Part shown: in pieces, positions 122-18,098 of the stretch
How positions within the stretch are numbered: position 1 is the first letter of the stretch
Layout: every line of letters begins with the position of its first letter
IMG/VR virus record: IMGVR_UViG_3300025138_000028
DNA from: an uncultured virus (IMG/VR IMGVR_UViG_3300025138_000028)
Taxonomy: Duplodnaviria > Heunggongvirae > Uroviricota > Caudoviricetes
Strand: one strand, 5' to 3'
DNA: 20,000 bases
The notes under the pieces: model-generated
The model's database searches: none
Seen by the model: the letters and a program-made list of their open reading frames with translations, nothing else
What the model was told of the DNA's origin: nothing
Translations under genes and position numbers: made by a program

Positions 122-3100
122 ATGAGAGATATTCTTAATTATATAGCCTATCCTAGCGGACAGTCTTTCACTACAGATTTAAGAGATAATATTAGCTTAA
201 CTTTTCCTTCTGGAACAACTAATATTTCTGTATCTATTGAACTAGAATTTGATACATTCTATAATCTATTTCGTGCATGGAAACCTGTAGAAGTAAATGG
301 TGTAAATGTAGAAAATAGTTATCCTTTCTTCAAAAGTGGATTATTTCTTTGGGAAATAACAACTGATTTAGTAATTTCTCCTAATACAACATCTTTTGTA
401 ATACAAACTTATGGTACTCAAAATGCTGCCGCACTAGGATCTGAGATTTGGACTATAGTAGGTCAACCTACATATACCAATCTAACATATAATATTGAAG
501 GTACTGTAGTTGATAATATAGTTGACAGTGGATCTCAGACTGTAACAGAACAAAGTCAAGATAGCTTCTATATTCCTCCAGTATCCCAATCTTTTGATTC
601 TGGTGTTATAGGATCATTTGGCTCTCTTGTTGCGGATAGTGCCACACTTTCTGCATTATTCTCAATAGCGGGTAGTGTTACTAATCTTGTTACAGATAGT
701 GCTAAGATTAATTTTATTAGCGGAAAAGGATTGATTTATGATTCTGGTATTATAAATCAATTCCATTCTGAAAGTGCTACTATTATTAATCTAGAAACTA
801 ATACAATCAACAACATTACTCTAACTTCAAATAAAGCTAATATTGTAGAAGCAACAGGATTGACTTCTAGATTTCATCAACATATAAGCGATAAAATAAC
901 ACTTGATAAGTCTATAAGAGTAGGTCGATATTTTCTAGATGCTGGAATATATGATAGCTTCAATGGAAGGGCTATTGGTGCTAACTTAGATGCTTTAGTT
1001 GCAGATAATTTTGGAGGTTTTTATTATTTAAAAGATGACTCCCAAGAAGCACATTTAAAATATGATGAAGTCGATAAGAAGTGGTCATTTTATCCAAATT
1101 TATTATTGAACGATATTGATAGTGATGGCATCAGAGACAGTGAAGTTATAGATAAAACGCCTTTAGGTAAAGGTGAAACAGGACAATTTTTATTTTACTC
1201 AGATAATGAATATGGTTGGGATTATCCTGTTTTAGAAGGAAAATATGCTTATGATAGTTTTGACCTTAATAAGCAGTTAAATAGAATACCTGATCCAATA
1301 GGACTTATAAAAGAAAAAGAAATGACTAAGTACTCATATTTTAGTCATAGTTACAAAACATTTAATCAGTTTGATGCTTCACATTCGGATTATACTAATC
1401 TAAATAAGTCAACTCAAAATAATTTTTATCCTAATGTTAATAGTTATGTAAACTACGTTGACGCTACAAAATCTTTTGACACAATCAATATAGACAGCCA
1501 CAGAACTGCTACGGATTCAGAAGATATATACTTGAAGAATAGTTTTAATGGAGTTTTATCTCCTAAATCTAGTAATAGATTCACACTATCAGCCAAAGTA
1601 TCTGCTACAGATAGCTTCAATCAAGCAGGTGCAATAGTTCTTATTGGAGCACATGTTGAAGATGCCGGTAAAGATCATACTTTGTCTTTAGTGAGAACCG
1701 TAAGTTCCAGTTATCCTTCAGGTCTAGATTCAGATCAGGTTGCGGTAGGCGACTCTTATAATTTATTTTCTTATGGCATATATTATAATTATTATCAGAG
1801 CGACCAAGTTTTAATAGGTAGAGAGCAAGAACCTGGTGTAATATCTAATCTTAATAGAAGTTGGGAAAATACTGGCTATTCTAAACTTTTTATTGAAAAG
1901 AATGAAAAATATATTAAATTTATGGCTTCTGACTGGAACGATAGTGTTCCATTAGCAGAGCATATAGTTTCGTTTAATTTTGACGATCAAAATGCAACTT
2001 GGTCAGATTTAGTAGACCTTAGCATTTTTAATGAGGAAGTAGGACATGGGTTCGGCTTTCATCATGTATCAAATGCAAAAATAACAGATATAAGATATAG
2101 ATCCGCAAACGATGCTGAATTTGGTACAGACGAAAATACTGTAATCGATTTATACAATAGAAATACTCACCTGTGGTACGATAGTTTCAAAGCTGCAGCT
2201 TTTGGTAAAACTAGAGGATATCATAAAGTTGACGTTGACTCTTTTGGCGTCAACATTATGAAAAAAAATATACCAGAAGGTAGATTTTATTGGAATAGAT
2301 ATTTAGATAAAGTTTGGTGGCAATCTGGAACAGGTGCAGACAATACATTTATGTTAAGTAATATTCTTGATGATACTAAACTACCTTTAGGGGAATATTT
2401 AGAAATTACAGCTGGTTCTACTACACCAGCACAAAACAGGCGTTTAGTTAAAAATCGAGTGCCGTTGCAAAGAATAAATTCTAATTTTGGCGTAACTCAA
2501 AGCGGAATAACAGTTAGCGTATTTCAAATGTCAGAAGATCCAGATGAAGAATCTGCATTAATTTCTACGGATAATTATTCTACTTACTTTAATACTACAA
2601 ATTCTAATGCATTTGCAGCGAAGTTAAACAGTTTAAGAACAGGCGGAGAAAGAGTTGTTGTTTTAACTTCTTATGGAAATTGGTGGACAGATAATACAAC
2701 CGTTAGAGATGCCGCAAAGGCTCAAGGATTAAGTAAACTTTGGGCAACTTGCGGAGGACCAGAGTCTCTTGCTAATCAACCATATGCTGCCATATACATG
2801 ACTGGAACAACTCAAAAAGTATATGAAACGACAGAAACTAATAATGGAACAATATCTCCTACAATATATTCCATTCTAAGGGACGGTGAATTTTTTGTAT
2901 TGAACGGAACTGCAAATGTAAGCGCAAATTTATCTGGGCCTCATGGAAATATAGAAGCTGAAATTGACGGAAACAATCGACTTACACTAACTAATGGAAT
3001 AATTACAAGTTTAGGAACTCCTAAAAATCTTGTAGACTTAGACTATGATGAACCCACAGATAGAAATAATAATATTTTAATACAGTCTCATAGTTCTATT

Positions 3101-4453
3101 CATAATCTCATAGATGCTTCGGATTCTGGAACAGATAATCATTGGTCTATTCAGAAAAATTTGGATCCATATAATGATACTGTTAGTAATACTACAGGAA
3201 TATTCAAAGTATCTGAAAATGGTGATGTTGATATTACAGGATCACTCACTACAATAACAACAGACAATATGATTGAAGGTACAAATAATATATTTTTCAC
3301 TGATAGTAGAGCGATAGCGGCATTATCAGTTATTAACGACTCTCCAACAGGCGGTGTTGCTACACTAGCTTATAACGATAGCGGAGTCTTTACTTTTACG
3401 CCAGCAGCAACATTATCAGTTATTAACGACTCTCCAACAGGTAGTGTTGCTACACTAGCTTACAACGATAGCGGAATCTTTACTTTTACACCGGCATTTC
3501 TAGGAACTGTGAGTTTGGGTGGAACAGCTCCAATTTTACCTGCAGACGGCACTGCTTGGTTTGATGATGTTACAACTGGAGAAATGTTTGTATATAGTGA
3601 TAGTGCATCAAATTGGATACAAGTTACTGGATCGATCACTTCTTTTTCAGCTATAAGTGGAACACCACCGACTGCACCTTTAGATGGTACTTTTTGGTTT
3701 GACGATGTAACAGACGGAGAACTGTTCATTTATAGTGATAGCGCGTCAAATTGGATACAAGTTACTGGATCGATCACTTCTTTTTCAACAATAGGCGCAA
3801 CGCCTCCAGCTGCACCTTTAAATGGTACTTTTTGGTTTGATGATAGCGCAACTGGAGAACTATTTATTTATAGTAATGAGGCATCAAATTGGATACAGGT
3901 TACTGGTGTAGTCGCTAATGTAGCATTTTCTAATTTAACAAGTACTCCAACTACCTTAGCAGGCTATGGAATTACTGATGCTGCAAGTTCATCAAGTGCA
4001 TCAGTTCCTGCCGGCACAGTAATTTATCACGCAGCTAATACTGCCCCTACGAATTTCATAAAAGCTAATGGTGCTGCTATATCAAGAACAACTTATGCTG
4101 ATTTGTTTGCAGCTATTGGAACGACATTTGGTACAGGTGATGGGTCTACTACATTTAATGTCCCAGACCTTCGTGGTGAGTTTATGCGGGGCTGGGATGA
4201 CACACGTGGTATTGATGGTAGCAGGGCATTTGGTTCGACGCAAGCTGATCAGATGGAGCAGCACAATCACATTCAATCAAACTACTCACTTCACCAAGGA
4301 TTCGGTGGCGGGACTGGCGGCGTAGTTGTTCGAAGCCCTGCAGACGTCCAGTACGGCAATCTTTCCACCATTTTGGGCAATAGGGGCGGCACAAGCAACA
4401 GCAGCGAGAATCGACCCCGCAACGTAGCATTGTTGGCTTGCATTAAATATTAA
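122..4453 (+). CDS. Long multidomain fibre / virion structural protein with internal repeats and C-terminal phage tail-collar domain
   Basis: 1443-aa ORF with RBS AAGGA at 109-113. The C-terminus has PTTLAGYGITDA, the tail-collar motif VPAGTVI...ANGAAISRTTYADLFAAIGTTFGTGDGSTTFNVPDLRGEF.RGWD, an HNH metal motif and the ending RPRNVALLACIKY. It also has a TTDN..EG.NN.FFT..RA fibre motif and tandem repeats. Confidence 0.85.
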   Translation: MRDILNYIAYPSGQSFTTDLRDNISLTFPSGTTNISVSIELEFDTFYNLFRAWKPVEVNGVNVENSYPFFKSGLFLWEITTDLVISPNTTSFVIQTYGTQNAAALGSEIWTIVGQPTYTNLTYNIEGTVVDNIVDSGSQTVTEQSQDSFYIPPVSQSFDSGVIGSFGSLVADSATLSALFSIAGSVTNLVTDSAKINFISGKGLIYDSGIINQFHSESATIINLETNTINNITLTSNKANIVEATGLTSRFHQHISDKITLDKSIRVGRYFLDAGIYDSFNGRAIGANLDALVADNFGGFYYLKDDSQEAHLKYDEVDKKWSFYPNLLLNDIDSDGIRDSEVIDKTPLGKGETGQFLFYSDNEYGWDYPVLEGKYAYDSFDLNKQLNRIPDPIGLIKEKEMTKYSYFSHSYKTFNQFDASHSDYTNLNKSTQNNFYPNVNSYVNYVDATKSFDTINIDSHRTATDSEDIYLKNSFNGVLSPKSSNRFTLSAKVSATDSFNQAGAIVLIGAHVEDAGKDHTLSLVRTVSSSYPSGLDSDQVAVGDSYNLFSYGIYYNYYQSDQVLIGREQEPGVISNLNRSWENTGYSKLFIEKNEKYIKFMASDWNDSVPLAEHIVSFNFDDQNATWSDLVDLSIFNEEVGHGFGFHHVSNAKITDIRYRSANDAEFGTDENTVIDLYNRNTHLWYDSFKAAAFGKTRGYHKVDVDSFGVNIMKKNIPEGRFYWNRYLDKVWWQSGTGADNTFMLSNILDDTKLPLGEYLEITAGSTTPAQNRRLVKNRVPLQRINSNFGVTQSGITVSVFQMSEDPDEESALISTDNYSTYFNTTNSNAFAAKLNSLRTGGERVVVLTSYGNWWTDNTTVRDAAKAQGLSKLWATCGGPESLANQPYAAIYMTGTTQKVYETTETNNGTISPTIYSILRDGEFFVLNGTANVSANLSGPHGNIEAEIDGNNRLTLTNGIITSLGTPKNLVDLDYDEPTDRNNNILIQSHSSIHNLIDASDSGTDNHWSIQKNLDPYNDTVSNTTGIFKVSENGDVDITGSLTTITTDNMIEGTNNIFFTDSRAIAALSVINDSPTGGVATLAYNDSGVFTFTPAATLSVINDSPTGSVATLAYNDSGIFTFTPAFLGTVSLGGTAPILPADGTAWFDDVTTGEMFVYSDSASNWIQVTGSITSFSAISGTPPTAPLDGTFWFDDVTDGELFIYSDSASNWIQVTGSITSFSTIGATPPAAPLNGTFWFDDSATGELFIYSNEASNWIQVTGVVANVAFSNLTSTPTTLAGYGITDAASSSSASVPAGTVIYHAANTAPTNFIKANGAAISRTTYADLFAAIGTTFGTGDGSTTFNVPDLRGEFMRGWDDTRGIDGSRAFGSTQADQMEQHNHIQSNYSLHQGFGGGTGGVVVRSPADVQYGNLSTILGNRGGTSNSSENRPRNVALLACIKY
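3321..3496 (+). repeat. Tandem direct repeat, 2 copies, 90-bp period (LSVINDSPTG.VATLAYNDSG.FTFTPA)
   Basis: 3321-3406 and 3411-3496 differ at 6 of 86 positions, all transitions. Confidence 0.95.
3518..3908 (+). repeat. Tandem repeat, 3 copies, 138-bp (46-aa) period: P..P..GT.WFDD...GE.F.YS..ASNWIQVTG
   Basis: The WFDD TGG codons are at 3557, 3695 and 3833. 42 bp are identical at 3608-3649 and 3746-3787. Confidence 0.95.
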
Positions 4454-4465
4454 GGAGACACATGT

Positions 4466-4861
4466 ATGAACGTATATCAAACTGACATTAATGGTGTCTA
4501 CTTAGGCACAACAACAGCAGACCAAGACCCTTTAGATAACACTAATTGGCTCATTCCAGCAGGTTGTGTAGAGACTGCACCTCCAACAATAACCGACAGC
4601 CAGCTTGCAAAATGGGGTGGTACAGAGTGGGTTGTAGAAGATATTCCTACTGTGGAGCCTGACCCAGAACCTGAGCCTATCGCACCAGAAGTTTCAGCCC
4701 GTAGAAAACGTGACGGACTATTGATGACCTCAGATTGGACACAAGTTAATGACTCTCCTGTAGATAAGTCTGCATGGGCAACATATAGACAACTTTTACG
4801 AGAGGTACCAAGTCAAGCAGAATTCCCAAACACAATTGTATGGCCTACTAAACCCGTATAG
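4466..4861 (+). CDS. Tail fibre assembly chaperone (C1)
   Basis: Follows the fibre, RBS AAGGAG. N-term Y.G...AD.DPL....WLIPAGCVETAPP, C-term R.KRD.LL..SDWTQ..D.P.DK.AWATYRQ.LR.VP.Q..FP..I.WPTKP. Confidence 0.85.
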   Translation: MNVYQTDINGVYLGTTTADQDPLDNTNWLIPAGCVETAPPTITDSQLAKWGGTEWVVEDIPTVEPDPEPEPIAPEVSARRKRDGLLMTSDWTQVNDSPVDKSAWATYRQLLREVPSQAEFPNTIVWPTKPV

Positions 4862-4890
4862 AGTATGCATAATCAGGAGAAAAAAGAATG
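4841..4890 (+). repeat. Chaperone-end/intergenic/RBS repeat (copies 4841-4890, 6858-6907, diverged 7301-7347, partial 9749-9769)
   Basis: TGGCCTACTAAACCCGTATAGAGTATGCATAATCAGGAGAAAAAAGAATG vs TGGCCCACTAAACCCGAATAGAATATGCGTAATCAGGAGAAACGAGAATG, 44/50 identical. Confidence 0.9.
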
Positions 4891-5583
4891 CCATATCCAT
4901 TAAACCCGACAACTGGTGATGAATATATTTTAGGATCAAAAACTTGGAAATACAATGGTTCGCGCTGGGTAAAATTAGGACTTTCACAAACTGTATCTGC
5001 AGATGTAGCATTCTCCGATTTAACAAGTAAGCCTTCTACATTAGCTGGCTATGGAATTACAGATGGGGCAACATCAGTTCCAGCTGGTATGATTATGCCT
5101 CACACTACCGCAACCGAGCCAGCGGGTTGGCTTGAATGTGATGGCGCCGCTGTTAGTCGCAGCACTTACTCCGCTTTGTTTGCAGTTATATCAGATGATT
5201 ATGGCGCAGGAGACGGGTCAACAACTTTTAACTTGCCAGATCTCAGAGGAGAATTTATCAGAGGTTTCGCAAACAGCTCCGCTAACGATGCAGACAGGGC
5301 GGGCCGTACCAATCGTGGAGATGGCACTACAGGCGATGTAGTTGGTTCTAAACAGTCCGATGCTATTCGTAATATGACAGGTGCTTACGGTTCAATTGTT
5401 GGTTGGCACACTAGCAGTTACTCAGTTAGCGGTGTATATTTTACAGGCTCATCGGGTAGTTACATAACTAATGGGTCATATGGTTCTGGTGGACACGTTC
5501 ACTTTAACGCTAGTAGACAGGTTCCTACAGGCTCGGATAATAGACCTACTAACGTACAAATGATGTACTGCATTAAAATATAG
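4888..5583 (+). CDS. Short fibre F2 with tail-collar domain and P2/Mu-like tip
   Basis: RBS CAGGAG. N-term YP.NPT.GD...KTW.Y.G..W, then KPSTLAGYGITD, the collar motif GWLECDG.AVSRSTYSALFAVI...TTFNLPDLRGEFIRG, and the tip DAIRN.TG...FNASRQVPT..DNRP.N. Confidence 0.85.
   Translation: MPYPLNPTTGDEYILGSKTWKYNGSRWVKLGLSQTVSADVAFSDLTSKPSTLAGYGITDGATSVPAGMIMPHTTATEPAGWLECDGAAVSRSTYSALFAVISDDYGAGDGSTTFNLPDLRGEFIRGFANSSANDADRAGRTNRGDGTTGDVVGSKQSDAIRNMTGAYGSIVGWHTSSYSVSGVYFTGSSGSYITNGSYGSGGHVHFNASRQVPTGSDNRPTNVQMMYCIKI
5017..5076 (+). repeat. 60-bp perfect direct repeat, copy 1 (copy 2 at 8628-8687; diverged copies ~3919-3986 and ~7464-7533)
   Basis: GATTTAACAAGTAAGCCTTCTACATTAGCTGGCTATGGAATTACAGATGGGGCAACATCA is identical in F2 and F4. 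Confidence 0.95.
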
Positions 5584-5591
5584 GAAATATA

Positions 5592-6392
5592 ATGACAAAA
5601 ATTCTTCATTTTGTATCTGGTTTACCTAGATCATGTTCTACACTCTTGTGTAATCTTTTAGCTCAGAATCCAAGAATACATGCAAGTCCTACAAGTGCAT
5701 TGCATGAAATAGGGTACATGTCTCGTCACATATTTCAGTCTGAAGAGGCTTCTTTTGTTGACAAAGAAAGTGTACTAAAACCTATGTACTTAGATTATGT
5801 TAGAGGTGGATGTGCAAATGCTTATAACAGTCTAACAAATCGTCCAGTAGTAGTAGATAAACACCGTTCTTGGATTGGGCACTCAGATCAACTGTTTCAA
5901 TTGTGGCCAGAAGCGAAGGTGATTGTTCCAATCAGAGATATTAGAGGTGTAATTTCTAGTATGGAGAAAAAAAGAAGAAAGCATCCTGAGTTTTTAAACC
6001 CTATAGAATTACAAAATCCTTATAATTGGACAACAATTGAAAAGCGTGTTCAAAGTTGGTTAGGCAATACACCTGTTGGTATTGCTATTGATAGATTGCT
6101 TGATGCTTCTACAAGATTTAGTGATAGAATAATGTTCGTACATGCAGAAGAATTGACAAGTAATCCTCAAGAAACGATGAACAAAATTTGGAATTATCTA
6201 GGAGAACAACCTTTTAATCACGATACTAAAAATGTGTTGCAGTATACTAAAGAAATTGATGCTGGTTTTCCTTACGGTGATCATGTTATTAAGCAAGAGA
6301 TAGAGCCTTTAGAAAAGGACTGGAATAAAATTTTAGGAGCTAATATATCAGAAATGATAAATCAAGAGTTTAAATGGATAAACGATCTGTAG
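5592..6392 (+). CDS. PAPS-dependent sulfotransferase (P-loop sulfotransferase family)
   Basis: 5'-PSB loop FVSGLPRSCSTLL, VVDK, 3'-PB-like AKVIVPIRDIRGVISS, and (Y/A)EEL..NP...M.KI..YLG. Confidence 0.85.
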   Translation: MTKILHFVSGLPRSCSTLLCNLLAQNPRIHASPTSALHEIGYMSRHIFQSEEASFVDKESVLKPMYLDYVRGGCANAYNSLTNRPVVVDKHRSWIGHSDQLFQLWPEAKVIVPIRDIRGVISSMEKKRRKHPEFLNPIELQNPYNWTTIEKRVQSWLGNTPVGIAIDRLLDASTRFSDRIMFVHAEELTSNPQETMNKIWNYLGEQPFNHDTKNVLQYTKEIDAGFPYGDHVIKQEIEPLEKDWNKILGANISEMINQEFKWINDL

Positions 6393-6407
6393 CAAATAGG
6401 AGACACT

Positions 6408-6878
6408 ATGACGAATCTATATAATTACGATAAAAATACTAAAGAGTATATCAATACTACTATAGCAAAACCTGATCCCATAGATGGTATTGATCGTATT
6501 CCTGCTAACGCTACTACGGTTGCCCCTATGACTGTAGCTGAAGATCGATTGGCTTGTTGGGATGGCACTAATTGGGTTGCTAAAGAAGATCATCGTGGAA
6601 AAGATTTTTGGACTAGTGGCCTTCAGATAGAACCTGAAACTGTTAATTGGATTGGACCTATGCCAGCTGATAAATTTTTAACTAAACCTGCTTTAACGGA
6701 TGCAGAGGCTTCAGCAGACATTCGCTTTAGACGTGATATGCGTTTGAATACCTCAGACAAAAATGCTCTCCCTGACCGTATTACAGACGCTTGGATTGCG
6801 TATAGACAGGAATTAAGGGATGTCCCAAAACAAGCAGGGTTTCCTCACAATATAACATGGCCCACTAAACCCGAATAG
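6408..6878 (+). CDS. Tail fibre assembly chaperone (C2, Tfa-like)
   Basis: YNYD..TKEY...IPANATTVAP...WDGTNW...EDHRG as in lambda Tfa-like proteins. C-term W.AYRQELRDVP.Q.GFP..ITWPTKPE. RBS AGGAG. Confidence 0.85.
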   Translation: MTNLYNYDKNTKEYINTTIAKPDPIDGIDRIPANATTVAPMTVAEDRLACWDGTNWVAKEDHRGKDFWTSGLQIEPETVNWIGPMPADKFLTKPALTDAEASADIRFRRDMRLNTSDKNALPDRITDAWIAYRQELRDVPKQAGFPHNITWPTKPE

Positions 6879-6904
6879 AATATGCGTAATCAGGAGAAAC
6901 GAGA

Positions 6905-7321
6905 ATGTCTATTACAATTACACAAGTGCGTAATGCACAATCACTTAACGCAGACAACACTCAAATGGATGTAGAAATTAATCATCCCGATTACGGTTGG
7001 ATACCTTACACTTTGGACCCTACCGACACTGATATGACTATCGATAACAATGCTGTAATGTCTTTGATAAGCACAAACTTTACATCTTATGTAGCACCTA
7101 CTCAAGCAGAGTTAGATGCAGAACTTGAAGCAAATCTAAGAAGTCAACGTGACCAGAAGTTAGTAGAAGAATTGGACCCTATAGTAACTAACCCTTTACG
7201 TTGGGCAGAACTTACATCTGATAAGCAAACAGAGTGGACACAATATAGAACTAACTTATTAAATGTACCACAACAGTCAGGGTTTCCTACAAATGTAACT
7301 TGGCCAGATAAACCTGTATAA
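6905..7321 (+). CDS. Tail fibre assembly chaperone (C3, HP.YGWIP type)
   Basis: RNA......D.EINHPDYGWIPYT.DP.D, then NPLRWAEL...Q.EW..YR..LL.VPQQ.GFPT.V.WP.KP. RBS CAGGAG. Confidence 0.85.
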   Translation: MSITITQVRNAQSLNADNTQMDVEINHPDYGWIPYTLDPTDTDMTIDNNAVMSLISTNFTSYVAPTQAELDAELEANLRSQRDQKLVEELDPIVTNPLRWAELTSDKQTEWTQYRTNLLNVPQQSGFPTNVTWPDKPV

Positions 7322-7324
7322 ATA
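7317..7324 (+). promoter_or_regulatory. T4-type late promoter TATAAATA
   Basis: Exact consensus overlapping the C3 stop codon, 20 nt upstream of the F3 ATG. gp55 is encoded in the window. Confidence 0.7.
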
Positions 7325-7344
7325 TACAATCGGGAGAAACAGAA

Positions 7345-8499
7345 ATGGCATATCCAACAAATCCAACGACCAGTGACACCTATGTTTTAGGAACAAAAAC
7401 TTGGACCTACAATGGCACGAACTGGGTAAATCAAGCAACGTTTGCATCCGGTAGCAATGCTGGTGTAGCATTCTCAGATTTAACAAGTACTCCAACTACA
7501 CTATCTGGCTACGGAATTACAGATGGTGCAACAGGAACAAGTGAATCAGTTCCAGTTGGTACAATAATTTATCATTCAGCCAACACACCACCTACGAATT
7601 TCATAAAAGCCAATGGTGATGCTGTATCGAGGACAACTTACTCTGATTTGTTTACAGTTATTGGAACAACTTTTGGTAGTGGTGACGGCTCTTCCACGTT
7701 CAATGTCCCTGACCTTCGTGGTGAGTTTCCCAGAGGTTGGGATGACAGTCGTGGAATTGATAATGGTCGTAACTTTGGCTCATCTCAAGCTGATGAACTA
7801 AAGGCACACACTCACACATTCTCAACACACTATAATACAGGGGCTGGCGGCGTACCACTGCAGGGGACTTCTTCCCCAGTAGGGACTGTTACCACAAGTA
7901 GCACTGGCGGATCAGAAACCCGCCCAAGAAACATAGCCCTACTTGCTTGCATTAAATATCAAGCAACCTCTTCTGGTGGCGGTGGCGGTGGCGGTTCTCT
8001 CAGCAACATAGTTGAAGATACTACACCACAGCTTGGTGGCAATCTGGACGCACAGACATTTGATATCACTACTACAGGAAAGATACTATACGCGAATATG
8101 TATGCTACAGAAGGTGATTTGCCAAGTGCGACCACCTATCACGGTATGTTTGCACATGTTCATGGTACAGGAGCAGGTTACTTTGCTCATGGCGGTAATT
8201 GGATTAAACTAGCAAATCATGCAGACCTGAGTAGTGCAGGTAGTACAACCTTTAATGCCATTGGAACTTATTGTTTGGGGTTCTATACTGGTCTTGGCAC
8301 TCACAATGGAGGTGCTACTTTCTCAGGAAGTTCAATTGCTACTGCTAATACTTATGCCGGTGGTGGTGGCTGGAGTGGATCTAGTACTTCTACTTTATCA
8401 GGAACTTGGCGCCTTATGGGAAACATAGGCTATTATAATCAAGGTAGCACTGCAAGTAACGCAAACGTATCCGGCAGTTTATTTGTGAGGATTTCATAA
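7345..8499 (+). CDS. Short fibre F3: tail collar, Gly linker, extra domains, GTWRLMG-type tip
   Basis: Same N-term module and PTTLSGYGITD junction. Its collar is close to that of the long fibre, with an HTH motif and an internal RPRNIALLACIKY. It continues with Gly7, EDTTPQLGGNLD, LPSATTYHGMFAHVHGTG and LSGTWRLMG...LFVRIS. Confidence 0.85.
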   Translation: MAYPTNPTTSDTYVLGTKTWTYNGTNWVNQATFASGSNAGVAFSDLTSTPTTLSGYGITDGATGTSESVPVGTIIYHSANTPPTNFIKANGDAVSRTTYSDLFTVIGTTFGSGDGSSTFNVPDLRGEFPRGWDDSRGIDNGRNFGSSQADELKAHTHTFSTHYNTGAGGVPLQGTSSPVGTVTTSSTGGSETRPRNIALLACIKYQATSSGGGGGGGSLSNIVEDTTPQLGGNLDAQTFDITTTGKILYANMYATEGDLPSATTYHGMFAHVHGTGAGYFAHGGNWIKLANHADLSSAGSTTFNAIGTYCLGFYTGLGTHNGGATFSGSSIATANTYAGGGGWSGSSTSTLSGTWRLMGNIGYYNQGSTASNANVSGSLFVRIS

Positions 8500-9473
8500 T
8501 GTCATATCCAACAAACCCGACAGCAGGTGATACACATATTTTAAGTGGAAAAACTTGGAAATATGATGGTACGAACTGGTCAAAATTAGGACTTTCGCGA
8601 ACCTTATCGGCGCCTGTAGCATTTTCTGATTTAACAAGTAAGCCTTCTACATTAGCTGGCTATGGAATTACAGATGGGGCAACATCAAGCGGAGGATTTG
8701 AAGCAATTGTATTTCCCTCAGATTGGTCAAGCCCTACTGCAACATATACCTCATCAGGAACATATTCTAAAGGATCGCTTGCCGACGATGACTATGTTTG
8801 GGTGTACCTTGTTGGCGGTGGCGGTGGTGGTTCTAAATCAGCAGGCGACAACATTTTTCCCGGTGGAGTTGGCGGCAGAGCAATGTTAATTTATGCCCAA
8901 GCTGGCGTTTTAGATGGTGCATCATATGTTGTCGGTGCTGGTGCGGCAGGCAAAACAAGTTCTACTGGCGCTGGTTATGACGTTGGCTCAAACCCGACCG
9001 TTTCCAGCTTCACGCTAACAAGCGGAAACGGCGGAAATGTGTTTGCAACCTCGACATCTCTTTACCCCTCGACGGCCACCGCAGACCTTTCAGCTTTTAT
9101 GAAAACTGTGTTAAAAACATCCTCGGATGTTCTTGCCACTGATGTCAGTATAACAGGAACAGAAATTACAAGCGTTACATTTTTAGGCACATTTCCATCT
9201 GGATATGGAAGTTTTTATGCGGGTGGTAACATATCCAACGACAATTCTGGCACCGTGGTATTTGGTGGGGGGTCCGGGGCTGGTAAACGCTTCTCCTCGG
9301 CCATAGCCAGCACTAACAATGAGGCAAGGTCTGATTCAACCTTTGCGGGTAATGGCGCAGCAGCCACTTCAGGGGCGGCAGGCGTTGCTCCGGGCGGCGG
9401 TGGCACAGTCGGGGGAGATGGCGACAATGGTGGTGACGGTGCTGCTGGTTCAGTGAGAATTTACAACGTATAA
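8499..9473 (+). CDS. Short fibre F4 with glycine-rich (adhesin-like) C-terminal domain
   Basis: Same N-term module and KPSTLAGYGITD junction but no collar. Gly-rich domain VWVYLVGGGGGG...VVGAGAAG...APGGGG...GGDGAAGSVRIY. TAATG stop/start overlap with F3. Confidence 0.8.
   Translation: MSYPTNPTAGDTHILSGKTWKYDGTNWSKLGLSRTLSAPVAFSDLTSKPSTLAGYGITDGATSSGGFEAIVFPSDWSSPTATYTSSGTYSKGSLADDDYVWVYLVGGGGGGSKSAGDNIFPGGVGGRAMLIYAQAGVLDGASYVVGAGAAGKTSSTGAGYDVGSNPTVSSFTLTSGNGGNVFATSTSLYPSTATADLSAFMKTVLKTSSDVLATDVSITGTEITSVTFLGTFPSGYGSFYAGGNISNDNSGTVVFGGGSGAGKRFSSAIASTNNEARSDSTFAGNGAAATSGAAGVAPGGGGTVGGDGDNGGDGAAGSVRIYNV
8628..8687 (+). repeat. 60-bp perfect direct repeat, copy 2
   Basis: Identical to 5017-5076. 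The sequences diverge immediately 3' of it. Confidence 0.95.
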
Positions 9474-9484
9474 AGGAGGTTGTT

Positions 9485-9769
9485 ATGACTAAAATATTTT
9501 ACAATAAAACAACAGGTGACCCAGCGGTATTTGATGACAATGCCAATGTATCTGATTGGCCTAACTTCCAGACATCTCAGCCTGATATGACACCAATTAG
9601 CGCAACGAAAGTACGCGCCGAGCGTGACGAACTACTAGCTGCATCTGATCATATGGCCTTGGCTGATAGGATTACTGATGGCTGGCGCACTTATCGACAA
9701 GCCTTGAGAGATTTGCCAGCGCAAGAAGGTTTTCCTACAAATGTAACTTGGCCCACTAAGCCCGAATAG
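9485..9769 (+). CDS. Tail fibre assembly chaperone (C4)
   Basis: VRAERD.LLAASD..AL.DR....W..YRQALRDLP.Q.GFP..V.WPTKPE. RBS AAGGAGG. Confidence 0.85.
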   Translation: MTKIFYNKTTGDPAVFDDNANVSDWPNFQTSQPDMTPISATKVRAERDELLAASDHMALADRITDGWRTYRQALRDLPAQEGFPTNVTWPTKPE

Positions 9770-9773: not shown

Positions 9774-10481
9774 ATGAATTTAATTAAACACGAAAAAGGT
9801 AATAAAAATGGTTGTCCTAGATGGGTATATGAAAATAATAATCATATTATAAAAACTATACCTTTTAAACCAGCGTACAATTTAAATGTAGGAAATCAGA
9901 TAAAATTAATAAATGAAGTGAGTGATACTGAGTTGATATTGTCTGATTATAAAATTGAAGATAATAAATTTTTAACTTATAAAATGAATAAGATTCCTTA
10001 TCAATTTGATTTAGAAGAAAATATAGTAAATGAAGCTAGTTTTGATGGCGATACATTTTTTTTCAAAAATAAAAAATTTAAATCTATATACACAGATATA
10101 GATTTGTATCTTGAAAATATTCTTGTAAAATATGTAAAAGTGAATTTAAAACTTTTTCCATACTATAATATTGACGGTGGATATGGGAACATACTTCAAT
10201 ACGATATTGGTAAATGGATTATCATTGATTGGGACGATTGTATTCTAGGTAATAAATGCAACTCTCAAGATATAGGAAAATACTTGATGATAGAAACTGT
10301 AGAATCGATTATTGATTTAATTGAATGTGCAGATATAAAAGATATAAAAAATTATTATCAAAAAGCAATTAAGTTTTACAAAAAAATGACATTAAATACT
10401 GTTTTAGAAAATTGCGAATTTAATTTAGAAGAATTAGCAATCAAAAGTTATATAAATATATCTGATAATAAGGAGAATTGA
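9774..10481 (+). CDS. Putative protein-kinase-like (APH/choline-kinase-type) phosphotransferase
   Basis: Candidate catalytic loop NIDGGYGNIL (DxxxxN), metal-binding IIDWDD and an N-lobe IIK lysine. Very AT-rich. Confidence 0.5.
   Translation: MNLIKHEKGNKNGCPRWVYENNNHIIKTIPFKPAYNLNVGNQIKLINEVSDTELILSDYKIEDNKFLTYKMNKIPYQFDLEENIVNEASFDGDTFFFKNKKFKSIYTDIDLYLENILVKYVKVNLKLFPYYNIDGGYGNILQYDIGKWIIIDWDDCILGNKCNSQDIGKYLMIETVESIIDLIECADIKDIKNYYQKAIKFYKKMTLNTVLENCEFNLEELAIKSYINISDNKEN
10451..10458 (+). promoter_or_regulatory. T4-type late promoter TATAAATA for gp67
   Basis: Exact consensus 24 nt upstream of ATG 10483, followed by RBS AAGGAG. Confidence 0.8.
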
Positions 10482-10984: not shown

Positions 10985-11638
10985 ATGAAACTAATTGCAG
11001 AATATTGTGACCACGATCTATCATTGATCAAAGAGTCTAAAGCAAACGGTGAAAAGTCTTATCAGATCGAAGGCGTATTTGCACAAGCAGATAAGCCTAA
11101 TCGCAACAAAAGAAATTATCCAATGGCGGTTATGAAACCTGCCGTTGAAAAATACTTTAATGAACAAGTTAAAACTGGTCGTGCTGTAGGTGAGTTAAAT
11201 CATCCTGACGGTCCGACAGTAAACTTGGACAAGGTATCCCATCGTATTACAGACCTTAAGTTTGAGGGAAATAATGTGATGGGTAAAGCACTTATATTAG
11301 ATACTCCCATGGGTAAGATTGTAAAAGGTCTTTTAGATGGTGGCTGTCAACTAGGTGTTTCGACTCGTGGTATGGGAAGTCTTGAGAAAAATAATAATGG
11401 GATTATGGAAGTTAAAGGTGATTATCATCTTAACACTGTAGACATTGTTCAAGATCCAAGCGCACCTGATGCATTTGTAAATGGCATCATGGAAGGTGTA
11501 GATTGGGTTTGGAATAATGGATTGATATGCGCTCAAGATATTGAAAAAATAGAGACTGAAATAAACAAAACTCCATCAAGATCATTGGTAGAAGCCAAAG
11601 TCCGTGAGTTTAAGAATTTCCTCTCATTGTTGAAATAA
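10985..11638 (+). CDS. gp21: Prohead protease
   Basis: IEGVF.QA...NRNKR.YP, GELNHP, GVSTRGMGSL, DIVQDPSAPDAFV.GIME. Confidence 0.97.
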   Translation: MKLIAEYCDHDLSLIKESKANGEKSYQIEGVFAQADKPNRNKRNYPMAVMKPAVEKYFNEQVKTGRAVGELNHPDGPTVNLDKVSHRITDLKFEGNNVMGKALILDTPMGKIVKGLLDGGCQLGVSTRGMGSLEKNNNGIMEVKGDYHLNTVDIVQDPSAPDAFVNGIMEGVDWVWNNGLICAQDIEKIETEINKTPSRSLVEAKVREFKNFLSLLK

Positions 11639-11653
11639 GAAAAGGAGTCAAGT

Positions 11654-12757
11654 ATGACTGATAACAATCAAGAGTACGAGATCCATGATGAGGAAGAAAT
11701 TGTGGAATCTCACGAAGGCGACGAAGAACTTCAGGAAAGAAGTGAACCAAAAGGCGATAAAGCATCGGCTATGGAAACACCTCCAACTGAAGATGAATCA
11801 GTAGCATCTGTAAAAGCTGCCGCCGGTAAAACTAAAAAAGCGGCGATGCCAAAAGCATCGGCGTCAGGCGCAAAAGCCAAAATGAAAGAAGCCATTGACA
11901 AGATGGAAGTAACTCAACTTCAATCATTGTACGCAAGTGTGATGGAAGAAGAAATTGATATGGAAGAGGAAGCAATTGTTGAGGAAGATACCTCTGCAAA
12001 TGAAGATTTGGAAGTTTTGATTTCTGGAGATGAGTCTCTTAGCGAAGATTTTAAAGCAAAAGCAAGTGTAATTTTTGAAGCTGCTATCAACAATCGCGTT
12101 GAAAGTAAAGTTCGAGAATTAGATGAAGCATTTGATGCTAAAATCGATAGTCTTGAGGAAAAATTTGCCGAAGAGACTACGGAAGCAATCGTAGAAGCCA
12201 AAACAGATTTGGTTGATAAAATTGATTCCTATCTTAACTACGTTGTCGAAAATTGGATGGAAGAGAATCGCATTGCTGTTGAAGCAGGCATTCGGACTGA
12301 AATTGCTGAAGGGTTTATGAATAAGTTGCAAAGCTTGTTTGTTGAATCTTACATTGAAGTCCCAGAATCCAAAGTTGATCTAGTTGATCAATTAGCTGAG
12401 GAAGTTCAAGAGTTGGAAAACCGCTTGAACGCTGAAACTTCAACTAATATGGAAATGCATGAAAGCATGAATAACCTTAAGCGCATGATGATTATTTCTG
12501 AAGCATCTAAGGACCTTGCTGACACTCAAGCTTCCAAACTAGAAAAATTGGCCGAAGGTGTAGATTTTGAAAACGAAGAAAAATTTGCTTTCAAAGTTAT
12601 GACTATCAAAGAATCGTATTTTTCAGCAAAACAAACTGTGGACACACCAACCGCTATTGTTGAGGAAACACTTACCGAAGAAAATAATGAAGAAACTAAT
12701 CAAGTAGAAGTTTCTTCTAATATGGCACAATATATCGCTGCCTTAAAAGCTAACTAA
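11654..12757 (+). CDS. gp22: Prohead core scaffolding protein
   Basis: Acidic coiled-coil with LSEDFKAKA..IFEAA, KIDSYLNYVVE.WM.EN..A.E.G.R.EIAE.F and IKESYF. Confidence 0.95.
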   Translation: MTDNNQEYEIHDEEEIVESHEGDEELQERSEPKGDKASAMETPPTEDESVASVKAAAGKTKKAAMPKASASGAKAKMKEAIDKMEVTQLQSLYASVMEEEIDMEEEAIVEEDTSANEDLEVLISGDESLSEDFKAKASVIFEAAINNRVESKVRELDEAFDAKIDSLEEKFAEETTEAIVEAKTDLVDKIDSYLNYVVENWMEENRIAVEAGIRTEIAEGFMNKLQSLFVESYIEVPESKVDLVDQLAEEVQELENRLNAETSTNMEMHESMNNLKRMMIISEASKDLADTQASKLEKLAEGVDFENEEKFAFKVMTIKESYFSAKQTVDTPTAIVEETLTEENNEETNQVEVSSNMAQYIAALKAN

Positions 12758-12771
12758 GGAGTATAAAAGTT

Positions 12772-14121
12772 ATGCAATATAATCAACTAGTAGAAAAATG
12801 GGCTCCAGTTCTGAATGAAGAATCAGCTGGTGACATTCAAGACAAGCACCGGAAAGCAGTAACTGCCGTTGTACTTGAGAACCAAGAAAAGGCTCTTATG
12901 GAACAGCGTCAACAACAAGCTGGTTTTGGCTCACTTAACGAAGCCGCACCAACTAACTCAACAGGTGCAAACATACAAAACTGGGATCCAGTTCTGATTT
13001 CTCTTGTTCGTCGTTCTATGCCAAATATGATGGCATATGACGTTTGTGGTGTTCAGCCAATGACTGGTCCAACTGGACTGATCTTTGCAATGAAATCCAC
13101 ATATCGCACTACTCGCGGTGGCGGAACAGACAATGGCGAAGCACTATTCAACGAAGCTGGAACTGGTTTCTCTGGTACAGGTTCCCATAGCGGCGGCCCA
13201 TCTGGTCTTGCAGGTCTTGACGGTACAGCCGGTCACGTAAGTGGCGACTCCTCAATCGACTCCGAGCGCGGTACTGGCCCAGCACATGGTACTGGTATGT
13301 CTACTGCCGACGGTGAAGCATTGGGTACTAACGGTTCAACAGCTTTCGCTGAGATGGGTTTCACCATCGACAAAGCGCAAGTCGTTGCGAAAACACGCGC
13401 ATTGAAAGCGGAATATTCGCTTGAACTCGCACAGGATCTGAAAGCAATCCACGGTCTGGACGCAGAAGGCGAACTGGCTAACATTCTTTCAACTGAAATC
13501 CTTGCAGAAATCAATCGTGAAGTTATCCGTTCTATCAACAGTCAAGCTAAAACTGGTGCAAGCCAAGCTTCTACTGCTATGAATGGTGTATTCGATCTGT
13601 CTACAGATGCAGATGGTCGTTGGAGTGTTGAAAAGTTCAAAGGTCTTATGATCCAAATTGAACGTGAAGCAAACGTAATCGCAAAAGAAACTCGCCGTGG
13701 TCGTGGTAACTTTATCATCACTTCTAGCGATGTTGCATCTTGCTTGTCTGCAACTGGTATGCTTGACTATGCACCAGCACTTAAAGATAACCTGAATGTT
13801 GACGATACTGGTAACACATTTGCCGGTGTTCTTAATGGTCGCACAAAAGTATATGTTGATCCATATGCAACAGTCGATTATATCACAACAGGTTATAAAG
13901 GTACTAACGCATATGACGCTGGTATCTTCTATTGCCCATACGTACCTCTTACAATGGTTCGCGCCGTTGCTGAGGATAGCTTCCAGCCAAAAATTGGTTT
14001 CAAAACCCGTTACGGCATGGTATCTAACCCATTCGTTGGTGCAACTGCTTCTGATGGTCTTGCTGCAGCTAAGACTAATCAGTACTACAGAATTTTCCGT
14101 GTAGACAATATTCTCGCATAG
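12772..14121 (+). CDS. gp23: Major capsid protein
   Basis: KW.PVL, LENQE, DPVLISLVRR.MP, GVQPMTGPTGLIFAM, RALKAEYS.ELAQDLKAIHGLDAE.EL.NIL..EI..EINRE, FYCPYVPL, FQPKIGFKTRYG. Confidence 0.99.
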   Translation: MQYNQLVEKWAPVLNEESAGDIQDKHRKAVTAVVLENQEKALMEQRQQQAGFGSLNEAAPTNSTGANIQNWDPVLISLVRRSMPNMMAYDVCGVQPMTGPTGLIFAMKSTYRTTRGGGTDNGEALFNEAGTGFSGTGSHSGGPSGLAGLDGTAGHVSGDSSIDSERGTGPAHGTGMSTADGEALGTNGSTAFAEMGFTIDKAQVVAKTRALKAEYSLELAQDLKAIHGLDAEGELANILSTEILAEINREVIRSINSQAKTGASQASTAMNGVFDLSTDADGRWSVEKFKGLMIQIEREANVIAKETRRGRGNFIITSSDVASCLSATGMLDYAPALKDNLNVDDTGNTFAGVLNGRTKVYVDPYATVDYITTGYKGTNAYDAGIFYCPYVPLTMVRAVAEDSFQPKIGFKTRYGMVSNPFVGATASDGLAAAKTNQYYRIFRVDNILA

Positions 14122-14173
14122 ATTCTAAAAACAATAAAGGAGAGCATCAAAGAATGCTCTCCTAATAAAACTC

Positions 14174-14203
14174 AAAGGCAGTGTTTCGGCACTGTCTTTT
14201 TTT
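14174..14203 (+). terminator. Rho-independent terminator after gp23 (UUCG loop), probably bidirectional
   Basis: AAAGGCAGTGT-TTCG-GCACTGTCTTT followed by a T run, between convergent genes. Confidence 0.9.
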
Positions 14204-14411
14204 AATCTAAAATGCAATTCCATTGTTCATTCACATAGAACGCTTCTAATGTATTATCTTTACCGAATGGTGAGATAATTTTACATACTGGAGGATTAGT
14301 ATCATCACCACGTTCATTATGTCTCATACTCATAGAACCTTCTACAATTTGACAATCGTGATGTGATGGTTGAACCATCGATCCCACAAACCTAACTGTT
14401 ACGACTTGCAT
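14202..14411 (-). CDS. Hypothetical protein (early block)
   Basis: 69-aa ORF whose start overlaps the stop of the upstream minus-strand ORF, with GAGGA upstream. Confidence 0.65.
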   Translation of the reverse strand: MQVVTVRFVGSMVQPSHHDCQIVEGSMSMRHNERGDDTNPPVCKIISPFGKDNTLEAFYVNEQWNCILD

Positions 14412-14767
14412 TATACTGTTTCCTCTTCATTGCGATAAAACCAAGCTTCCAGGTCAAAATCTTTAGCTGCTGATACTGCAACTTCAAAAACTTCAAAAGG
14501 ATCTGTACCCTTAACTGTATCATTATTCCAAATAGTAGCTTGAACTCCGTCTCCTGGAAAAGCTGTGACACATCCTACATTGTGATAATGATAACCATCT
14601 TCAGTGTACTTGATGTCCCAAATTGGAGTGCCGTAAGACCATTCACCAGTACTAGCTTCTTTAACACGCTCAAACTGAAAGCGAGCCGAAACATTTGAAG
14701 GAGCGTTATTTACATAATTATTCCAAATACCGGTACCGGTTACATATGAAGGAAGTTTAGTTTTCAT
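14411..14767 (-). CDS. Hypothetical protein (early block)
   Basis: 118-aa ORF with its own promoter and a purine-rich leader. Confidence 0.75.
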   Translation of the reverse strand: MKTKLPSYVTGTGIWNNYVNNAPSNVSARFQFERVKEASTGEWSYGTPIWDIKYTEDGYHYHNVGCVTAFPGDGVQATIWNNDTVKGTDPFEVFEVAVSAAKDFDLEAWFYRNEEETV

Positions 14768-14811
14768 TTTTATGTCTCTTTCTTCTTTGTCTTGATTCTC
14801 TTTACTCTTTT

Positions 14812-14840
14812 TTTGTAGCGCATTTCTGCGCTACTGTCAA
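14812..14840 (-). promoter_or_regulatory. Sigma70-type early promoter with 8-bp palindrome
   Basis: Minus strand TTGACA-17 nt-TACAAA. The inverted repeat GTAGCGCA-GAAA-TGCGCTAC is at 14815-14834. Confidence 0.75.
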
Positions 14841-14846
14841 GAGTTT

Positions 14847-15218
14847 TTATCCGTGATCATATGCACAATGTACAGTTTTTTTGTTTTTCCAAGCAAATAT
14901 TAGATTATAATACCAACTTTCATTTTTGTTTCTTAGTATCTGCAGGGGAGAACTATCAAGACCCTCTTTGTTCCGCTCTGCAACATATTCTTCAACTGTG
15001 AAAGACTTCATCAATTCTTTCATGAATTTGGCTTTAGTGAAAGGACCGCCGTACTTGAACCGAGCGATAAAGAGGTCTTTTGGTTTACCAACACGCGATG
15101 GATGAACATTTACACCATTTTTTGAAACTGCTGGCCAAACGGGTCGACCCTCATAGTCGCCAGTGTAGTGCAAATAGCCACCGTGATATGTGAAGTCATT
15201 TTTATTGAACTTTGTCAT
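14847..15218 (-). CDS. Hypothetical protein (early block)
   Basis: 123-aa ORF (F.YHGGYL.Y...FIARFKYGGPFTKAKF.KEL) with its own promoter and leader. Confidence 0.8.
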   Translation of the reverse strand: MTKFNKNDFTYHGGYLHYTGDYEGRPVWPAVSKNGVNVHPSRVGKPKDLFIARFKYGGPFTKAKFMKELMKSFTVEEYVAERNKEGLDSSPLQILRNKNESWYYNLIFAWKNKKTVHCAYDHG

Positions 15219-15252
15219 TTCAGGCTCTCTTTCTGTTTCTCTTTACTCTTAC

Positions 15253-15281
15253 TTTGTATCTGATTCGTATAAGATTGTCAA
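15253..15281 (-). promoter_or_regulatory. Sigma70-type early promoter
   Basis: Minus strand TTGACA-17 nt-TACAAA, followed by the shared AAGAGTAAA leader. Confidence 0.75.
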
Positions 15282-15290
15282 GTCTTAATA

Positions 15291-15509: not shown

Positions 15510-15541
15510 AATATCTCTCTCTTTCGATTTTTTACTCTTAC

Positions 15542-15570
15542 CTTATATCGAATATAAGCTGTTATGTCAA
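15542..15570 (-). promoter_or_regulatory. Sigma70-type early promoter with 7-bp palindrome
   Basis: Minus strand TTGACA-17 nt-TATAAG. The inverted repeat CTTATAT-CGA-ATATAAG is at 15542-15558. Confidence 0.75.
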
Positions 15571-16143: not shown

Positions 16144-16590
16144 TTGCTAACAATTGAAACTACTTTAGAAGAATGGCAAAAAGATTGCCAAATAGATGAA
16201 AAAAATTTAGTTAGATCCACCGTAGAAATTGCAAAACTACACGCAAAATATTTACAGGTTCTTTCTATAAACAAACTACAACTTAAAAAATCTGAGATGA
16301 AACAAAAAACACTTTTATTAGAAAAGTGGAAATATTATAATGGAAAATTGTCTCAAGATGAAATCGATGCACATGGTTGGACTTATGATCCTTTTGATGG
16401 TATAAAGCCACTCAAAGGAGATATGAACCGTTATTACGATGCAGATGAAGATATTCAAAAATCAGAAGAACGAATAGCATACTACAAAACTTTTGTTGAG
16501 ACACTTTCAGAAATCGTAGAAAATTTAAAATGGAAGCATCAATCAATAAGTAATATTATTAGATGGAAACAGTTTGAGGCTGGTGGATAA
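16144..16590 (+). CDS. uvsY: Recombination mediator UvsY
   Basis: TTG start with GGAG RBS. W..D..ID......S....KLHAKYL, KWKYYNGK, I.N.I.W..FEAG. Confidence 0.9.
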   Translation: MLTIETTLEEWQKDCQIDEKNLVRSTVEIAKLHAKYLQVLSINKLQLKKSEMKQKTLLLEKWKYYNGKLSQDEIDAHGWTYDPFDGIKPLKGDMNRYYDADEDIQKSEERIAYYKTFVETLSEIVENLKWKHQSISNIIRWKQFEAGG

Positions 16591-18098
16591 TGATTGAAAA
16601 AATTTCGGTAATGAAGAAAAATGAAAGCCAACTGCTAGTTGATTGTGACAGCGGAATTCTTATGGAATTAAATGAATACTTCAGTTTCTTCGTGGATGGA
16701 TACAAATATATGCCTCTTTATCGAAATAAAGTTTGGGATGGCAAAATTAGAATATTCAATGGAATGACGCAAGAGTTGCCGGCAGGTCTACTACATCAAC
16801 TCAAATCATTTTCGAAACAACGAGGATATGAATTAGATTATGAAGATAGTGAATATGGTTCTCCCGAGCAATACAATCAAATAGATCCCGACACTGTTAT
16901 GAAATTCATTGAAACTTTAGATTTAAGAAGCAAAGGTAATCCTATAAAAATAAGAGATTATCAATTCGATGCTATATGCACTGCAATTAAAAATAAAAGA
17001 TCGATACTGCTATCTCCTACAGGTTCAGGTAAATCTCTAGTCATTTATGTTTTGTTAAGATGGTATATGAAAAACAACGATAATAAAGTATTAGTAATTG
17101 TTCCAACAACATCATTAGTACAACAGATGTTTGCGGATTTTTCGGATTATTCGACACATGATAATTCTTTTGCTGTTGAGAAAGAATGTCATGTAATATA
17201 TTCTGGAAAAGCTAAACATGATATAAAAGAACGTATAATTGTTAGTACTTGGCAATCCATATATAAACTTCCTCCGAGTTGGTTTTCTAATTTTGGAGTA
17301 GTATTCGGAGATGAGTGCCATGGATTTAAATCGAAATCTCTTACATCTATTATGAATAAATGTGTAAACACTGCGTATAGATATGGAACAACAGGGACAC
17401 TTGACGGTACACAAACCCACAAACTTGTTTTAGAAGGTTTATTTGGTAAAGTAAGAAAAGTTACCACAACAAAAAAATTACAAGATGACGATACTTTAGC
17501 ACCTCTCAATATTTTTATGTTGACTTTAGAATATAGTGAACAAGAAAAAATGGAAAATGTAGGTAAAACTTACGCTCAAGAAATTAATTGGATCGTACTA
17601 AATGAAGCTAGAAACAACTTCATACGAAACTTGGCCATTGATATGAAAGGAAATACATTAGTCCTTTTTCAATTTGTAGAAAAACATGGTAAAGTTCTAC
17701 ATGATATAATTTCTGATAAAGCAGAAGAAAATAGAAAGGTATTCTATGTATCTGGCCAAACAGAAGCTACGGACAGAGAAGCTATAAGAAAAATTGTTGA
17801 AACTCAAAAAGATTCTATAATTGTAGCTTCTTTAGGCACTTTTAGTACAGGTATAAATATTAAGAACTTACATAACATCATATTTGCTTCTCCTAGTAAA
17901 TCTCAAATCAGAGTATTACAAAGTATAGGAAGAACTTTAAGAAAAAGTGATGATGGTAGAGTGAGTAAGTTATACGACTTAGTGGACGATCTAAAACACA
18001 AATCAAAAGATAATTACGCATTACTTCATGGAGAAGAAAGACTAAAAATCTACAAGAAAGAGAAATTTGATTTTAAAGAGTACAGGATAAAGCTATGA
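16590..18098 (+). CDS. uvsW: SF2 DNA/RNA helicase UvsW
   Basis: WDGKIR, RDYQ, SPTGSGKS, VPTTSLV.QM, STWQS, GDECH, GTTGT, GTFSTGINIKNLHN, LQSIGR.LR. Confidence 0.97.
   Translation: MIEKISVMKKNESQLLVDCDSGILMELNEYFSFFVDGYKYMPLYRNKVWDGKIRIFNGMTQELPAGLLHQLKSFSKQRGYELDYEDSEYGSPEQYNQIDPDTVMKFIETLDLRSKGNPIKIRDYQFDAICTAIKNKRSILLSPTGSGKSLVIYVLLRWYMKNNDNKVLVIVPTTSLVQQMFADFSDYSTHDNSFAVEKECHVIYSGKAKHDIKERIIVSTWQSIYKLPPSWFSNFGVVFGDECHGFKSKSLTSIMNKCVNTAYRYGTTGTLDGTQTHKLVLEGLFGKVRKVTTTKKLQDDDTLAPLNIFMLTLEYSEQEKMENVGKTYAQEINWIVLNEARNNFIRNLAIDMKGNTLVLFQFVEKHGKVLHDIISDKAEENRKVFYVSGQTEATDREAIRKIVETQKDSIIVASLGTFSTGINIKNLHNIIFASPSKSQIRVLQSIGRTLRKSDDGRVSKLYDLVDDLKHKSKDNYALLHGEERLKIYKKEKFDFKEYRIKL

Follow-up and report, generated by a model that had tools for sequence, protein, structure and literature searches.

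The window analysed here is a 20,000-nucleotide stretch of DNA from an uncultured virus (IMG/VR record IMGVR_UViG_3300025138_000028). It belongs to a T4-like phage and encodes gp21, gp22, gp23, uvsY, uvsW, a gp55-like sigma factor and a gp47/SbcD-like gene. Between the portal gene, which ends near position 107, and gp67/gp68/gp21 lies an array of fibre genes (F1 to F4) and chaperone genes (C1 to C4), which is best read as a variable island for receptor binding in a marine T4-like phage. The gene order from the portal side is F1, C1, F2, a sulfotransferase gene, C2, C3, F3, F4, C4 and an orphan of 235 residues. The GC content of the array is mostly 40–51% (lower in the sulfotransferase gene) and that of the flanks is 23–34%. 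The DNA that carries such arrays comes from marine metagenomes. The features of the array are as follows.

122..4453, plus strand: F1, long fibre of 1443 residues; body, repeats, junction and a gp12-like collar tip ending in ...ACIKY
3920..3985, plus strand: junction copy 1, in F1; homology with six related arrays stops at 3981
4466..4861, plus strand: C1, Tfa-type chaperone (PF16778) of the MNVYQTD class, found together with ...ACIKY tips
4888..5583, plus strand: F2, short fibre; leader, junction and a collar tip with homology to the receptor-binding domain of T4 gp12
5005..5076, plus strand: junction copy 2, in F2; 5017-5076 is identical to 8628-8687
5592-6392, plus strand: sulfotransferase-family gene (PF13469) inside the array, between F2 and its chaperone, with a GC content below that of its neighbours
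6408..6878, plus strand: C2, chaperone (PF16778) of the MTNLYNY class, found together with ...MYCIKI tips
6905..7321, plus strand: C3, chaperone (PF16778) of the MSITI class, found together with ...VRIS tips; 97.6% identical in nucleotides to lineage B, a second T4-like lineage described below
7317..7324, plus strand: TATAAATA, which we take to be the T4-type late promoter consensus and hence a putative promoter; it lies over the C3 stop, upstream of F3, and in the same place in the related array L007
7345..8499, plus strand: F3, short fibre with leader, junction at 7465-7530 and collar tip, then a Gly linker, a second domain and a ...VRIS C-terminal tip
8499..9473, plus strand: F4, short fibre; leader, junction (8616-8687) and a glycine-rich tip (PF21722)
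9485..9769, plus strand: C4, chaperone (PF16778) of the MTKIFYN class, found together with Gly-rich tips; the array has its right-hand hinge at the 3' end of this gene (~9722-9769)

A preliminary description of this stretch had placed one junction peptide, in a single orientation, in all four fibres, and this is borne out. The peptide VAFS(D/N)LTS(T/K)P(T/S)TL(A/S)GYGITD(G/A)A starts at 3920, 5005, 7465 and 8616, on the same strand and in frame in F1 to F4; all copies are direct and none is inverted. Exact repeats extend over 60 bp at 5017/8628 (F2/F4), 22 bp at 3933/7478 (F1/F3) and 23 bp at 7283/9731. The last of these, together with the best 50-mer spanning the stop and ribosome-binding site of the C1 and C2 chaperones (44/50 at 4840/6857), agrees with the repeats previously noted at the downstream ends of the cassettes. 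The 60 bp of F2 and F4 had been described as standing between diverged flanks; the identity is exact and the 3' flanks are unrelated, but the 5' flank is a homologous leader (73–80% nucleotide identity, with 19 of 26 shared codons identical at synonymous sites). The 22 bp shared by F1 and F3 are likewise exact, but the similarity spans the entire collar tip, at 62% amino acid identity. The first 60 nucleotides of junction copy 2 are also identical in the lineage-B array L006, where a different tip follows.

Over 34 array junctions, synonymous identity at shared codons is 0.774, compared with 0.36–0.40 expected from codon usage, which agrees with the earlier claim of DNA identity beyond codon bias, with the proviso that loci picked with the junction pattern raise this figure. 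The peptide itself is a common marine fibre repeat. The fetched loci contain 119 distinct junction-like contexts, most of them in fibres of unrelated marine phages and often several per protein, so its presence at the protein level is unsurprising. The Pfam phage tail repeat PTR (PF12789), an Atlas lead with a score of 0.87, was rejected as its identity, four junction-bearing pieces giving no match at E≤10.

Related arrays were collected from IMG/VR with the junction pattern, which yielded 14 loci, and with a looser pattern, which yielded 108 stretches. Identity profiles in 30-nt steps, for several pairs, run at ~90–100% up to the junction and at ~20–45% right after it, and reciprocal pairs rise at the junction. 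The window F1 and its counterpart in L095 share 76–96% identity over the 240 nt upstream, 86–90% in the junction and 20–46% beyond it; F2 and L006 share 96–100% over 120 nt and the junction, then 6–56%. The 34 junctions cluster into 6 types by upstream sequence and 13 by downstream sequence, joined in 19 combinations, and 3 of the 13 downstream types stand behind at least two upstream types. These steps and re-joined combinations support the proposal that recombination at the junction gave in-frame exchange of tips. In 11 arrays, junctions account for 78 of the 340 binned homology ends (29 expected); gene starts (48 observed, 18 expected), collar ends (31, 11) and chaperone ends (24, 11) follow, although homology ends are not independent and p-values computed from them are overstated. 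The array has several hinges, and the junction is the busiest of them. The six junctions of L009, a near-duplicate of L007, were left out of the identity, synonymous-site and clustering tests and were kept in the count of homology ends.

The array-bearing loci are mostly of the second T4-like lineage (B), whose core genes share 73% (gp21), ~74–75% (gp23) and 69% (uvsW) identity with those of the window (lineage A). In lineage B the array lies on the opposite strand and is flanked by gp23 and gp3. Nonetheless, the F1 repeats, three leaders, C3 and three parts of F3 match lineage B at 94–99% nucleotide identity; no lineage-B match was found for the variable tip of F1, most of the F2 and F4 tips or the sulfotransferase gene. 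A pool of modules common to two lineages indicates exchange between genomes. Within lineage A, the suggested swap of a tip onto the long fibre is seen in one assembly (L005=L095=L098): in L095 the F1 body is 97.5% identical to that of the window, the ...VRIS tip that ends the window F3 follows the junction, and the whole downstream array is different. Between −660 and −60 relative to the junction, L095 and the independent contig L096 are 100% identical; L095 also carries private alleles just 5' of the junction and has no exact match among lineage-B tips, and it is therefore no plain copy of lineage B. At the right-hand hinge, L015 is 98.9% identical to the window from 9722 onward, but a different chaperone ends there. 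Among close relatives, L095 is shuffled and L097, 99.89% identical, keeps the array order of the window. The F3 junction (7473-7501) carries 3 of the 9 substitutions that separate the window from L097 over 13.3 kb, a cluster that may reflect either a micro-conversion tract or the bleeding of co-occurring strains into the consensus.

The tips and chaperones of the array fall into recognizable families. Collar matches (PF07484) are above cut-off in F1, F2 and F3, whose tips fit the class of T4 gp12-like collar/receptor-binding domains. Residues 63–231 of F2, which cover the tip length, align with PDB entry 1ocy with an E value of 5.9e-8, and a Foldseek search with a monomer model of this tip returned gp12 and the A-1(L) fibre as top matches, with TM scores of just 0.3–0.4. 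F1 comprises a 1090-residue unannotated body, two 30-residue repeats, three 46-residue repeats, the junction and the collar tip (Collar match at 1298–1355). No Pfam, PHROG or NCBIfam match was obtained for the N-terminal body (window 122-3400). In lineage B an unrelated 'MARRITVNLSDT' body precedes the same repeats and junction as in F1. A 90-bp tandem repeat in F1 (3316-3495) is present in two copies in the window and L097 and in one copy in L095, L096 and run X5. The short-fibre leader is ~40 residues long; its likeness to the 46-residue repeats of F1 is plausible by eye and is not claimed here (BLASTP E value of 0.2), and leads from Atlas, for this leader and for the body of F1, scored <0.9 and were rejected. 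The C-terminal tip of F3 also occurs on unrelated fibre bodies that have no junction, and therefore tips circulate beyond such arrays. The L007 fibre genes at 10992-15076 (reverse strand), 590 and 770 residues long, consist of concatenated tips with 2–3 internal junctions. Among the fetched loci L097 alone also has a sulfotransferase gene in its array.

PF16778 is above cut-off in 4 of 4 chaperones, in the C-terminal part only. By this match C1 to C4 share the layout of Tfa-type chaperones, with a conserved C-terminal APC domain and a variable N-terminal domain. Tip and chaperone classes correspond one-to-one in 16 loci, a tally that includes several overlapping or near-identical loci, with exceptions solely at contig ends. 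The pairs are ACIKY with MNVYQTD, VRIS with MSITI, Gly-rich with MSKIFYN, EYYS with MDYKT, and MYCIKI with MTxxYNY. The idea that tip and chaperone move as units is upheld, as tip classes travel with matching chaperone classes; each chaperone may bind its cognate tip. The predicted complex of three F3 C-terminal tips with three C3 chains scored a median of 0.01 (runs of 0.47, 0.00 and 0.01) and carries no weight either way. The pairing agrees with the modular Tfa proteins, in which a variable N-terminal domain binds the tip and the C-terminal domain is conserved (PMC9608196).

Ordinary homologous recombination at conserved coding motifs, across a population-wide pool, probably explains the array best. 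Each fibre gene would begin with a leader or, in its place, a long body, continue with the 20-codon fibre repeat and end in one or more tips, and each tip class would be accompanied by a class-matched Tfa-type chaperone. Crossovers would fall in short conserved stretches, most often the junction and also gene starts, collar C-termini and chaperone C-termini, where the general homologous recombination of the phage, presumably by UvsX, UvsY and UvsW, would act. UvsY, UvsW and a gp47/SbcD-like gene are indeed all present in the window, as described previously. The partners in an exchange would be co-infecting genomes, drawn from two or more lineages, or at times two copies in the same genome. A crossover within the junction would preserve both frame and domain boundary, which would keep the products viable and leave the junction DNA homogenised across the population; such swaps may alter host range. 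Junction identity is 89.7% within genomes (53 pairs) and 89.1% between genomes (508 pairs; permutation p=0.18), and this equality fits a population-wide pool. Further, run X1 holds another genome in which a ...VRIS tip is followed by C3 (join of 8501 to 6911), and therefore carriers of the array co-occur.

Several points weigh against this explanation. All of the evidence comes from metagenome assemblies, and recombinant molecules as such were not observed; in lineage A the swap on the long fibre depends on the single assembly mentioned above; the junction pattern used as bait inflates junction-centred breaks, and 145 of the 340 homology ends fall at no defined motif. In addition, only 3 of the 34 junctions are of the rare KPST kind, and F2 and F4 hold two of them (p~0.03, post hoc), which fits conversion within a genome better. 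This last observation, with the 60 identical bp that carry the rare allele, speaks for the reading that the preliminary description favoured, a recombinase-free contingency locus in which junction recombination within a genome during replication would often shift tips to the long fibre or delete and duplicate cassettes, giving host-range variants in a clone. Such a locus is unlikely, and the same doubt attaches to its elaborated form, in which expressed mini-fibres would serve as an on-board tip library, selection for recombination would keep the junction DNA uniform, T4-type recombination-dependent replication would move tips to the long fibre, or excise or duplicate cassettes, at a frequency that matters within one bloom, and the five-class code would keep the products foldable. 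The internal junctions of the L007 fibre genes are consistent with it, as are a tandem-doubled junction in L011/P0010, found on 4 contigs, and a join in L009, where the first tip of the L007 array stands behind the fourth junction of that array. The L009 join looks like the product of duplication, or of circle formation, between two L007 junctions, but it lies only 96 nt from the contig end. The depth of run X1 is 322–408 over the array and 523–589 over the flanks; this dip tracks higher GC and is confounded by GC and contig-level depth, and was rejected as a sign of such a locus. A special within-genome switching system is not supported, given the lack of within-genome excess identity, the other hinges, the generic peptide and the pool common to two lineages. 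As regards a silent-cassette gene-conversion system, homogenisation within genomes shows no overall excess, the F2/F4 pair is suggestive, and the would-be donors look expressible. A search for joins of the kind suggested earlier, between the flank of one junction and another tip, gave no junction-to-junction joint among the 15 of 19 joints listed for the contigs of X1, the deepest run, although contigs drop rare variants. The order of the window is repeated in L097 and in contigs of run X2, which read through the F1 junction with 0 differences and through the F3 junction with 3. Two candidates for rearranged molecules were set aside. In run X5 most of 4400-6800 is uncovered, with flanks at ~98.5%, but no contig joins across and a deletion was not counted; the joint of 4051 to 7634 in runs X2 and X3 has 37 foreign letters and a 33-nt side and is probably from another organism.

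That the shuffled combinations are false, co-occurring strains having been mis-joined by assembly at near-identical junctions, is highly improbable. Junction copies do have up to 59–66 exact bp in common, both lineages occur in the same samples and L009 may be such a loop. However, the long fibre with a ...VRIS tip recurs in independent contigs (L003, L004, L006, L007, L011, L131 and L153), the long fibre with a collar tip recurs in L001 and L013, L095 has private alleles just before its junction and no exact match among lineage-B tips, and random chimeras would break the match of tip and chaperone classes, which stay matched. A site-specific recombinase encoded elsewhere in the genome, using the junction as a shufflon-like crossover site in direct orientation, is equally hard to credit. 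At several synonymous sites of the junction core the 34 copies hardly vary, and the evidence here covers the window rather than the rest of the genome. Nonetheless, the Pfam scan of 24 window ORFs (17 + 7) contains no resolvase, integrase or reverse transcriptase (RT) family, in line with the earlier statement that no invertase or RT is nearby; none of 4 lineage-B fragments, each 10–23% complete, has a recombinase or RT family; and the 7.5 kb upstream in L097 contains only core-type ORFs (≥100 residues, judged by eye), with no adjacent site-specific recombinase. The direct orientation of the copies, the clustering of breaks at other motifs and the generic nature of the peptide also speak against a dedicated site. 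Invertible fibre switches (Mu Gin, P1 Cin and shufflons) and diversity-generating retroelements keep alternative tips next to a fibre gene, and in this the array resembles them. Unlike these systems, it has direct repeats, no invertase or RT in the window ORFs, and spare tips that are complete genes with their own starts and ribosome-binding sites; both classifications were rejected.

The T-even distal tail-fibre/adhesin locus (gp37/gp38) was reportedly found by Tetart et al. in 1998 to shuffle at conserved motifs. In T-even adhesins, exchanges occur within or near conserved motifs (PMC3157838). The array is similar in being of the T4 superfamily, in exchange near conserved motifs that flank variable specificity parts, in having no dedicated recombinase and in a library of binding domains across genomes. 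It differs in having at least four fibre paralogues with their own chaperones in tandem among head genes, in a hinge that is DNA-conserved in every copy, and in occupying different loci in two lineages. Its relatives differ by module swaps that end in conserved motifs, as in motif-mediated shuffling. The PeSLs of phages RB49 and phi1 are also short direct repeats in T4-type genomes with modular shuffling; they mediate insertion, deletion and replacement of modules, and circles from neighbouring repeats were shown (PMC2839356). PeSLs are intergenic promoter-terminator cassettes, whereas the hinge of the array is coding and gives in-frame fusions, and circles were seen only for PeSLs. The chaperones resemble Mu Tfa and Pam3 gp24/gp25 (PMC9608196) in a variable N-terminal domain matched to the tip and a conserved C-terminal domain, and the traffic resembles that of distant Alteromonas phages, which have fibre and chaperone modules in common, moved between distant marine phages (PMC10579305). 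Unlike known Tfa pairs, the array has five coexisting tip-chaperone classes that re-assort. Hypervariable host-recognition islands are described for pelagimyophages (PMC7029224).

No description of such an array was found in a literature search that covered sources other than subscription papers and supplements. As a tandem of several genes with a single DNA-uniform hinge the array is a variant, the mechanism itself being known from T-even phages, and it is a clean natural case of a known way in which phages change binding, not a proven dedicated switch. It provides a sharply mapped example of re-assortment of receptor-binding parts in marine T4-like phages, a defined 60-bp coding hinge with a limited set of leaders, of tips and of the chaperones that match them, and a record of recent traffic between lineages ~30% divergent in core genes. 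The rate and route of fibre exchange, within or between genomes, become measurable in wild populations by long reads or polymerase chain reaction.

Every array gene has a purine-rich, ribosome-binding-like stretch and each short gene has its own start. The suggestion that the short genes are expressed rather than silent donors is thus upheld as regards starts, ribosome-binding sites and, for F3, the candidate late promoter; F2 to F4 are probably expressed and may also be incorporated into virions. Scans for sigma-70 promoters and terminators gave chance-level matches only.

The array was not found in cultured phages, where the best blastn cover is 10%, and the closest cultured major capsid protein (gp23) is 64% identical to that of the window. 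Among 60 gp21 relatives with the portal gene in view, none has collar or APC matches in the portal-to-gp21 interval. Nine loci (L017-L019, L021, L024, L034, L035, L041 and L050) have a portal-gp21 gap of 6–10 kb without such matches. The junction pattern has 0 matches in GTDB genomes and therefore gives no clue to the host. The remaining features of the window are as follows.

9774-10481: AT-rich orphan ORF of 235 residues, with no family match and one relative, L015, at 97%
10985..14121, plus strand: core head genes gp21, gp22 and gp23, 3' of the array
14411-15549, minus strand: a group of three small ORFs in the interval from gp23 to gp3
16144..18098, plus strand: uvsY and uvsW, standard T4-like recombination genes

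A short repeat beginning TTTACTCTT (family D17) lies upstream of each of the small minus-strand ORFs, at 14801, 15242 and 15531, and these repeats are possibly early-promoter cassettes.

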